DNA of 64,000 nucleotides from Escherichia coli (lineage in GTDB: Bacteria > Pseudomonadota > Gammaproteobacteria > Enterobacterales > Enterobacteriaceae): the NCBI RefSeq assembly GCF_003334385.1, contig NZ_QOWN01000004.1. One strand, 5' to 3'. Shown piece after piece: positions 49,137 to 51,673 of this stretch. A model generated the notes under the pieces. The model did no database searches. It worked only from the letters and a program-made list of their open reading frames with translations, and was not told where the DNA came from. A program made the position numbers and the translations under genes. Position 1 is the stretch's first letter. Each line of letters starts with the position of its first letter.

Positions 49137-49185
49137 TACGTTATTCCTGCGAATGCGAGGGGGCGCAATTGCGCCCCGAAGAAAA

Positions 49186-50607
49186 TTAAACAATGTCCAG
49201 CGTGCCCAGGCGGTATTTCCGCTGATAGATAAACGAGGTGAGTACAATCGGGATGATGATGGCGATAGCCATTGCCAGCGCAAACACCTGCCAGTAGCTC
49301 GGTTGAATCGAGAGAATTCCCGGCAGGCCGCCTACGCCGATGCCATTCGCCATAACGCCGTTCAGGCCGCATAGCAATCCTGCCAGACCAGAACCAATCA
49401 TCGCGCACAGCATCGGGAAGCGATATTTCAGGTTGATGCCGTACATTGCAGGCTCAGTGACCCCAAGCCAGGCGGAGATAGCGGCAGGCACGGAGATCTC
49501 GCGTTCATTGTGCTTGCGGCTGGAAATGATAATGCCTATCACGGCGGAGCCCTGAGCGATATTCGACAGCGCAATCAGCGGCCACACTGGCGTACCACCC
49601 ATGCTTTGAATCATCTGCAAATCAATAGCAAGCGTGGTCTGGTGTACACCGGTGATCACCAGCGGGGCGTACAGGAAGCCAAACAATGCTGCGCCAATAG
49701 GTGCAAAGCTGCCGGTCATCAGGTGACGTACCGCAAAGGCAACGCCATCGCCAATCATGCGTCCAAACGGACCAATCAGCGCATGGGCGAGGAACACCGC
49801 GAGGATCAGCGAACAGACGGGCACCACCACCAGATAGAGGTAATCCGGCACGATGCGTTTAAGGCGAGTTTCAATAACGCCCAGCGCCAGCCCGGCTAAC
49901 AGTGCCGGGATCACCTGCGCCTGATAGCCTACTTTGGTGATGCTGAACATGCCAAAGTCCCACACTTCCGGCAGCTGCTGCCCGAGCAGATAAGCGTTCA
50001 TCAGCTGTGGAGAAACCAGCGTTACGCCAAGTACGATACCAAGGATCGGCGTGCCGCCCATTTTTTTCACCGCTGACCAGCAAATCCCGACCGGCAGGTA
50101 GAAGAAGATCGCTTCACCGATCAACCACAGAAAATCGTAGATCGTTTGCAGGGAAGGGTACATTTGCGCCAGCGTTTGACCGTTGCTCATGGGCAAATCG
50201 CCGATCACATTGCGAAAACCGAGGATCAAACCGCCGCTAATCAACGCGGGCAGCAACGGGAAGAAGATCTCCGCGAAATGAGAGATCAACTGCTCATGCC
50301 ATTTCATATTCTGCCGGGCGGCTTTTTTTACCTGCTCTTTATCAACCTGCGCCTGTCCGGTTGACGCAATCAGTGCTTGATAGTAATCACCCACATTGGT
50401 GCCAATCACCACCTGAAATTGCCCGGCATTGGTGAAACAGCCTTTCACCATGGGGAGTTGCTCAATTTCTTTCGGTCTGGCATTGGCCGGTTGGTTGAGG
50501 ACAAAGCGCAGGCGAGTAATACAGTGGCTCACCGTCGCAATATTGCCGCGCCCGCCGACCAGTTCAATCAACCGATCGATATCCGTTTGGTTTATTTTGC
50601 TCATCAT
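49186..50607 (-). CDS. treB: PTS trehalose-specific EIIBC component TreB
   Basis: 473 aa, MMSKINQTDIDRLIELVGGRGNIATVSHCITRLRF... Confidence 0.96.
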   Translation of the reverse strand: MMSKINQTDIDRLIELVGGRGNIATVSHCITRLRFVLNQPANARPKEIEQLPMVKGCFTNAGQFQVVIGTNVGDYYQALIASTGQAQVDKEQVKKAARQNMKWHEQLISHFAEIFFPLLPALISGGLILGFRNVIGDLPMSNGQTLAQMYPSLQTIYDFLWLIGEAIFFYLPVGICWSAVKKMGGTPILGIVLGVTLVSPQLMNAYLLGQQLPEVWDFGMFSITKVGYQAQVIPALLAGLALGVIETRLKRIVPDYLYLVVVPVCSLILAVFLAHALIGPFGRMIGDGVAFAVRHLMTGSFAPIGAALFGFLYAPLVITGVHQTTLAIDLQMIQSMGGTPVWPLIALSNIAQGSAVIGIIISSRKHNEREISVPAAISAWLGVTEPAMYGINLKYRFPMLCAMIGSGLAGLLCGLNGVMANGIGVGGLPGILSIQPSYWQVFALAMAIAIIIPIVLTSFIYQRKYRLGTLDIV

Positions 50608-50672
50608 AAAGCCCCATGGCAGATGACATTTTTGGTTGGCTGCAGAATATATTGCGCGGAAAAATTTAAAAA

Positions 50673-50686
50673 CGGGAACGTTCCCG
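50673..50686. promoter_or_regulatory. TreR-type operator palindrome in the treB promoter
   Basis: cgggaacgttcccg, a perfect 14-bp palindrome flanked by A/T runs, between treR and treB. Confidence 0.65.
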
Positions 50687-50725
50687 AAACGCAGCGAAGA
50701 TCACAATTTATCGTTCAGGAAACGA

Positions 50726-51673
50726 TCAGGACAGGGTGGCGGGGATGATGATTTGTTGCGGTTCGCTGCGCCCGGTTACCTGTGCGATCAATTGGCAGGC
50801 CGCCTGGCGTCCAGCTTCGGCGTAACCAGGATCTACGGTGACGATCTCCGGATGAAGGAATTTCATTAACGGCGTATTACCGACGCTCGCCAGTTGCAAG
50901 GTGTCGATGCGTTGCTCTTGCAGGTATTTACTTGCGCCAAGTGCCAGCGTGTCGGTTGCGCACAGTAAGGCGGTAGTTTCAGGCGTAATCACTTTTGCTA
51001 CGTTCTCATAGCCTTGCTTCATAGCAAGCCCTGGCAGAGCGGCAACGGGATGCAGTTTATGCGCTTTGCAGAACGCCAGGTAGGCTTCGTGACGTCGCTT
51101 ACCGGTCGTCACGTCACTGTGCGGCACGCCGAGATAACTGATATTACGATGCCCCTGGTCATAGAGCCGTTGCATCAGGATCTTGATTGCCCCTTCGTCG
51201 TCATAACAGACCGAAGCAAAGCCTTTTGCGTCACGCGCCAGCAGAACCAGCGATGACTGCCAGTGGGCTAACATTTCTTCTGTTATGCCGGTAAAACCGA
51301 ACAGCACTACGCCGTCGATATTACGCCGTTTTAGGATCCCCAAATGTTCGGCAACTAATTGCGGGGAAAACTGACTTTCCATCATGATTGGGTCGTAACC
51401 TTGTTCATAGAACGCTGGCAGCATGGTTTGAACGGCGAGATTTTCTGACAACGAATCCAGGCGGGTAACAATGATGGCGACCACTTTATCGCTTTGCCCA
51501 CGCATAGCGCGCGCAGAGCGGGAAGGGGAAAATCCATGCTGATTCATCACTGCTTCCACGCGCTCGCGCGTGCGCTGGCTCACGCCGCTTTCGTTATTCA
51601 GCACCCGGGAAACCGTAGATTTCCCCACGCCGCTTAAGCGCGCGATGTCTTTGATGGTCAGCCGATTTTGCAT
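50726..51673 (-). CDS. treR: Trehalose operon repressor TreR (LacI family)
   Basis: 315 aa, MQNRLTIKDIARLSGVGKSTVSRVLNNESGVSQRTRERV... Confidence 0.96.
   Translation of the reverse strand: MQNRLTIKDIARLSGVGKSTVSRVLNNESGVSQRTRERVEAVMNQHGFSPSRSARAMRGQSDKVVAIIVTRLDSLSENLAVQTMLPAFYEQGYDPIMMESQFSPQLVAEHLGILKRRNIDGVVLFGFTGITEEMLAHWQSSLVLLARDAKGFASVCYDDEGAIKILMQRLYDQGHRNISYLGVPHSDVTTGKRRHEAYLAFCKAHKLHPVAALPGLAMKQGYENVAKVITPETTALLCATDTLALGASKYLQEQRIDTLQLASVGNTPLMKFLHPEIVTVDPGYAEAGRQAACQLIAQVTGRSEPQQIIIPATLS

Follow-up and report, generated by a model that had tools for sequence, protein, structure and literature searches.

A perfect 14-bp palindrome in the spacer between treR and treB very probably serves as an operator for TreR within the cAMP-CRP-dependent treBC promoter, TreR binding being predicted from sequence and context. 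It lies directly upstream of the -35 box at a fixed distance from a mapped transcription start site (TSS), its core is invariant in the Enterobacteriaceae treB upstream regions aligned, and in rearranged loci it accompanies treB, not treR. RegulonDB already records TreR sites and CRP control at treBC, and the feature is known rather than new; the TreR operator listed at treBp of E. coli K-12 (RegulonDB/EcoCyc) belongs to this same locus, with an identical spacer, and has the same repressor, target operon and inducer (trehalose-6-phosphate; PMC3505978).

The palindrome was analysed within a 64-kb stretch of E. coli chromosomal DNA (the window). The treR-treB spacer corresponds exactly to 50608-50725 (118 bp), between the end of the treR stop codon (50726) and the treB ATG (50607). 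All tre genes are on the minus strand, with treC downstream of treB and mgtA divergent from treR. In the direction of transcription, the region contains:

50726..51673, minus strand: treR, gene for the LacI-family trehalose repressor, 315 aa (TIGR02405 equivalog, 589 bits)
50717..50730, no strand: weak TreR-like candidate CCTGATCGTTTCCT (given on the treB-sense strand), 5/14 mismatches, central CG kept, centre -86.5, overlapping the treR stop codon
50687..50708, minus strand: putative CRP site, 22-mer AATTGTGATCTTCGCTGCGTTT, -71 to -50, centre -60.5 (50697.5 relative to the TSS at 50637)
50673..50686, no strand: predicted TreR operator CGGGAACGTTCCCG, 14-bp perfect palindrome, -49 to -36, centre -42.5
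50667..50672, minus strand: -35 hexamer TTTTTA, -35 to -30, 3/6 matches to TTGACA, 17-bp spacer to the -10 hexamer
50644..50649, minus strand: -10 hexamer TATTCT, -12 to -7, conserved as TAnnnT
50637..50637, minus strand: TSS (A) of treB(C), NC_000913.3 position 4466210, mapped by SMRT-Cappable-seq (PMC6131387)
50608..50636, minus strand: treB 5′ UTR, with Shine-Dalgarno sequence GGGG at 50615-50612 (GAGG in most other genera)
49186..50607, minus strand: treB, trehalose PTS EIIBC gene, the regulated gene (NF008236, 973 bits)

The spacer is base-for-base identical to that of E. coli K-12 MG1655 (window coordinate + 4415573 = NC_000913.3 coordinate), where the palindrome is found at 4466246-4466259. 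A 351-bp query around the palindrome matches 5415 of 5426 complete E. coli genomes, and the 53-bp block comprising the CRP site, operator and -35 box is at least 99% identical in 5009 of these 5426.

The first-pass annotation had placed a perfect 14-bp palindrome between treR and treB at 50673-50686, and the sequence there is indeed CGGGAA-CG-TTCCCG, an inverted repeat of even length that has a CG step in the middle and its centre ~72.5 bp before the treB ATG. Palindromy of this length is by itself unremarkable in 64 kb: the window contains four perfect palindromes of at least 14 bp, compared with 4.8 ± 2.3 expected from first-order Markov random windows, an expectation that scales to ~0.009 for one 118-bp spacer. 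Position and conservation are what give this one meaning. Its inner 12-bp core (GGGAACGTTCCC, 50674-50685) occurs only once in the window, and near the promoter no other sequence was found within three mismatches of it.

Conservation was assessed from 80 Enterobacteriaceae treR loci (TreR 83-99% identical), collected in a single genome-collection scan that returned this family only. The resulting alignment of 77 distinct treB upstream regions covers more than 15 genera, all within Enterobacteriaceae. The 12-bp core is invariant in 77/77, against a mean column identity of 55% for the alignment. At the outer 3′ base of the 14-mer A is found in 68 sequences, G in eight and T in one; since the outer pair is not conserved, the functional unit appears to be the 12-bp core. 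The 14-bp element as first annotated is therefore a perfect palindrome in E. coli, but the conserved unit is two bases shorter. The only invariant or nearly invariant blocks in the alignment are TGTGATC, TTTCGGGAACGTTCCC, TTTT and TA...T, with no indels between them, while columns outside these blocks are ~40-60% identical. TTTCGGGAACGTTCCC is the 16-bp combination of TTTC and the core (TTTC-GGGAACGTTCCC, 50689-50674), itself invariant or nearly so across Enterobacteriaceae. Each of the 76 treR-treB loci in which treB is retained has the candidate operator, which is the sole invariant palindrome of the promoter.

Start-site mapping fixes the position of the palindrome in the promoter. In Supplementary Data 1 of PMC6131387, 8155 reverse-strand reads begin at 4466210 and cover b4240 and b4240|b4239 (treB and treB-treC); the supplements of the 2016 Cappable-seq study have no entry for the treR-treB region. 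TATTCT lies exactly 7 nt upstream of this TSS, and its TAnnnT positions are conserved (T in 96%, A in 100% and the final T in 100% of the 77 sequences; 50649, 50648 and 50644) in gap-free alignment with the operator. TATATT (50651-50646) was considered as an alternative -10 box and rejected, as the gap-free alignment and the mapped TSS favour TATTCT (50649-50644). In the -35 box, T is invariant at positions 1 and 2 and at least 92% conserved at positions 3 and 4 (TTTT, 50672-50669). A consensus promoter scan identified no strong sigma-70 promoter upstream of treB, as expected of an activator-dependent promoter. The CRP 22-mer, palindrome and -35 box are contiguous, with zero spare bases.

The earlier remark that no clear CRP site could be seen by eye did not hold up: the strong half-site TGTGATC is present on the treB-sense strand (50705-50699), invariant in 77/77, within the 22-mer centred at -60.5. 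Compared with TGTGA-N6-TCACA, the left half is perfect (TGTGA) and the right half degenerate (CTGCG, 1/5), which is why the site was missed. The TTT at the 3′ end of the 22-mer is also invariant or nearly so in the 77 sequences. By plain counts of consensus matches, AATTGTGATCTTCGCTGCGTTT agrees with the CRP consensus at 14/22 positions (6/10 in the core), a score reached or exceeded ~12 times in the 64-kb window. Known CRP targets include treB, which genomic SELEX also recovered (PMC3105977). The sequence alone would be insufficient to call this putative site, but it is supported by being invariant, by lying at a class I position and by the inclusion of treB among CRP targets.

The layout resembles that of class I CRP promoters of the lac P1 type: one putative CRP site lies ~60 bp before +1, the -35 box is poor, and the -10 box fits TAnnnT well. 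The core promoter is weak in the manner of this class, judging from the 3/6 match of its -35 box and the lack of any consensus-type promoter in the scan. It differs from typical members in spacing (CRP centre at -60.5 rather than near -61.5) and in the CRP site, of which just one half fits the consensus. The repressor site is also placed differently, between CRP and the -35 box, whereas lac O1 sits downstream of +1.

Interpretation of the palindrome as a LacI-family operator, proposed in the first-pass annotation, is supported by its even length, its central CG, the adjoining treR gene, the invariant core and the centre at -42.5 from the mapped TSS. In form, promoter position, proximity of a cognate regulator with HTH and hinge, and conservation at the sequence level, it has the features of LacI/GalR-family operators as described in PMC4052901. 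The N-terminus of TreR contains the LacI-type HTH (PF00356 in Pfam, residues 6-51), and its headpiece aligns with LacI residues 4-58 without gaps, hinge helix included; in this alignment, LacI Y17/Q18 correspond to K/S and L56 to M in TreR. TreR is represented in the PDB by its effector domain only (4XXH), with no TreR-DNA structure. A literature search found no coordinates for the treB promoter, TreR motifs or CRP/TGTGA tables, and TreR is not mentioned in Camas 2010 or Francke 2008.

RegulonDB has two TreR operator sites at treBC, according to PMC3505978, while just one is convincing by sequence here. The second may correspond to CCTGATCGTTTCCT, although this is only a weak candidate, not conserved outside Escherichia and Citrobacter. 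It overlaps another inverted repeat, ATCGTT-tcctg-AACGAT (50710-50726, minus strand), which lies right after the treR stop and is likewise conserved only in Escherichia and Citrobacter.

If TreR binds the palindrome, the two HTH headpieces of the dimer would each contact a GGGAAC half-site, and its hinge helices would lie at the central CG. At class I CRP promoters, the alpha C-terminal domain of RNA polymerase docks just downstream of CRP, beside sigma region 4 at the -35 box. TreR would fill -49 to -36, the DNA needed by the alpha C-terminal domain and sigma region 4, and by covering this docking DNA would keep CRP from recruiting polymerase. The repressor is released by trehalose-6-phosphate (Horlacher & Boos 1997, cited in PMC3505978). 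Full expression would then still need cAMP-CRP, because the -35 box is poor.

This arrangement is similar to anti-activation by CytR at deoP2, in that a LacI-family repressor would sit directly beside DNA-bound CRP and hinder CRP-dependent recruitment of polymerase. CytR at deoP2 has weak DNA binding of its own and depends on contacts with the CRP dimers on either side of it, two in number. In contrast, treBp has one CRP site and a perfect, high-information palindrome, from which independent, high-affinity binding and simple occlusion would be expected. We regard as rather doubtful a reading in which the operator is more than a simple roadblock. As the operator exactly fills the DNA from the CRP site to the -35 box, and the 16-bp TTTCGGGAACGTTCCC is frozen, TreR might repress by anti-activation, evicting the alpha C-terminal domain while CRP might stay bound. 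In this reading the palindrome could, once transcribed, also be a weak terminator or TreR-dependent roadblock that would insulate treBC from treR read-through, making the element bifunctional as DNA and RNA.

An alternative is that the palindrome acts, as its chief or a second function, as a Rho-independent terminator for treR, stopping read-through into treBC. The RNA, from the treR/treB sense strand, would then be CGGGA-ACGU-UCCCG followed by UUUUUAAAUUUUU. In a consensus scan of 50400-50950 no other site resembled a terminator; this one has a stem of 5 pairs (4 GC), a loop of 4 nt and a tail rich in T. It is located 40 nt past the treR stop codon, in a spacer without any other obvious treR terminator. 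The 5-pair stem and 4-nt loop are followed by TTTTTAAATT, formally a U tract, the palindrome being followed on the treB-sense strand by TTTTTAAATTTTT. However, the hairpin would be weak: the E. coli form folds at -6.3 to -7.0 kcal/mol and the four-pair variant found in most species at -5.4 kcal/mol, compared with -17.7 kcal/mol for the hairpin between treB and treC and -23.4 kcal/mol for the region downstream of treC with the operon-end hairpin. The pattern of conservation is also wrong for an RNA structure, with the outer C-G pair broken in 69/77 sequences and the ‘loop’ ACGT invariant. The treB-treC hairpin, used as a control, has the opposite pattern: its stem is kept across Enterobacteriaceae through compensatory changes (GGGGTGC/GCACCCC, GGGGCCAA/TTGGCCCC), while its loops vary (AATT, AGTT, CGTT, GAAA and others). 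The invariant T's after the palindrome are accounted for by the -35 box, 17 bp from the -10 box.

Rearranged loci separate treR from treB and provide further evidence against a treR terminator. In Enterobacter chuandaensis (L036) and E. quasihormaechei (L046), ~1.8 kb lies between the two genes, yet the block of CRP site, palindrome and -10 box is found directly upstream of treB, despite the insertion after treR. The inserted segment contains small ORFs on the opposite strand. Conversely, the palindrome is absent after treR in four loci where treB is missing downstream (L003, L004, L028 and L034). In Escherichia sp. E1V33 (L003), nrdD comes ~500 bp after treR, and in E. whittamii (L004) there is no treB within 2.5 kb; with treB missing, treR survives in these two as an orphan repressor gene. 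Term-seq tables (PMC7815308) contain no minus-strand 3′ end at 44662xx-44663xx, although this is weak evidence, as treR is poorly expressed, and treR transcripts were undetected in PMC6131387. Neither a stable hairpin with conserved pairing, nor an element that stays at the 3′ end of treR, nor, in these tables, a mapped 3′ end was found. A treR terminator is disfavoured and seems improbable as the main or an additional function of the palindrome, which is part of the treB promoter and conserved for its DNA sequence, not for a fold in the RNA.

Even less probable is that the operator serves another LacI-family regulator or palindrome-binding protein, with TreR acting elsewhere, e.g. at 50717-50730. 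Sequence analysis is unable to assign the site to one paralog, and CebR2 of Streptomyces, an unrelated LacI-family protein, has a predicted site with the identical core; of the two TreR sites that RegulonDB reportedly lists (PMC3505978), only one could be placed here. The association of the site with treR-treB in every treB-retaining locus, its status as the only invariant palindrome of the promoter and the uniqueness of its 12-bp core in the window argue against this, as does the poor match and lack of conservation of 50717-50730.

The Streptomyces sequence was the only match in a full-text literature search for the core. CebR2, a LacI-family protein of Streptomyces scabiei, has the predicted operator TGGGAACGTTCCCA, the CebR box being TGGGACGCGTCCCA (PMC9953190). 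The CebR2 box shares with the palindrome the identical 12-bp core GGGAACGTTCCC, a 14-bp even palindromic form, the central CG and a location upstream of a disaccharide uptake gene (PMC9953190), but belongs to another phylum, regulator, effector (cello-oligosaccharides) and transporter type (ABC). The flanking bases differ as well (T..A for CebR2; C..G or C..A for the TreR site). The likeness probably reflects shared headpiece chemistry rather than orthology, and with the same core predicted for CebR2, the palindrome is a genuine operator sequence of the LacI type.

A second exact GGGAACGTTCCC core was found in Trabulsiella odontotermitis (L040) at 1618-1629, in an AT-rich context upstream of treR, in the usual place of mgtA. 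It is ~68 bp upstream of a truncated treB-like start (MLKINQQDIDKLIELVGGRENIATVSHCITRLRFGLR*, 1697-1807) and away from any treR 3′ end, and seems to be what is left of another treB under TreR control, which may have been acquired.

A functionless chance palindrome, for which one could cite only the ordinary number of such palindromes in the window, is refuted by the conservation data and has practically no likelihood left, given a core that does not vary among 77 sequences of over 15 genera, amid neighbouring columns of 36-60% identity, and whose distances from the CRP half-site, -10 box and mapped TSS are constant.

Further RNA 3′ ends map within the operon. Term-seq gives an abundant 3′ end (score 47785) at window position 50603 on the minus strand (NC_000913.3 4466176), 5 nt inside the treB ORF and 35 nt from the treB TSS. 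A short treBp transcript of ~35 nt is implied, which could originate from pausing, premature termination or processing. The 49-nt treB-treC spacer contains an 18-bp perfect GC-rich palindrome (GGGGCGCAATTGCGCCCC, 49160-49177, minus strand; NC_000913.3 4464733-4464750), the -17.7 kcal/mol hairpin above, which lacks a U tract. Term-seq places a very strong 3′ end at 4464728, 5 nt past GGGGCGCAATTGCGCCCC (PMC7815308), and treB-only transcripts end at 4464727 by SMRT-Cappable-seq (PMC6131387). This hairpin is probably an intra-operon partial terminator or a 3′-end-protecting structure that sets the treB:treC ratio. At ~47437 (minus strand; NC_000913.3 4463009/4463010), the operon ends in a canonical intrinsic terminator (AAGCCCCGG...CCGGGGUUUU), its 3′ end mapped by both Term-seq and SMRT-Cappable-seq and labelled ‘novel TTS’ in the latter.

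For the window, the analysis provides a base-level map of treBC control (CRP site, TreR operator, -35, -10 and TSS) whose importance hardly extends beyond annotation. Across Enterobacteriaceae, this control region is among the most rigidly conserved non-coding blocks of the locus. Its compact CRP/repressor/-35 layout would allow a local repressor to override a global activator, a principle well established for sugar operons.
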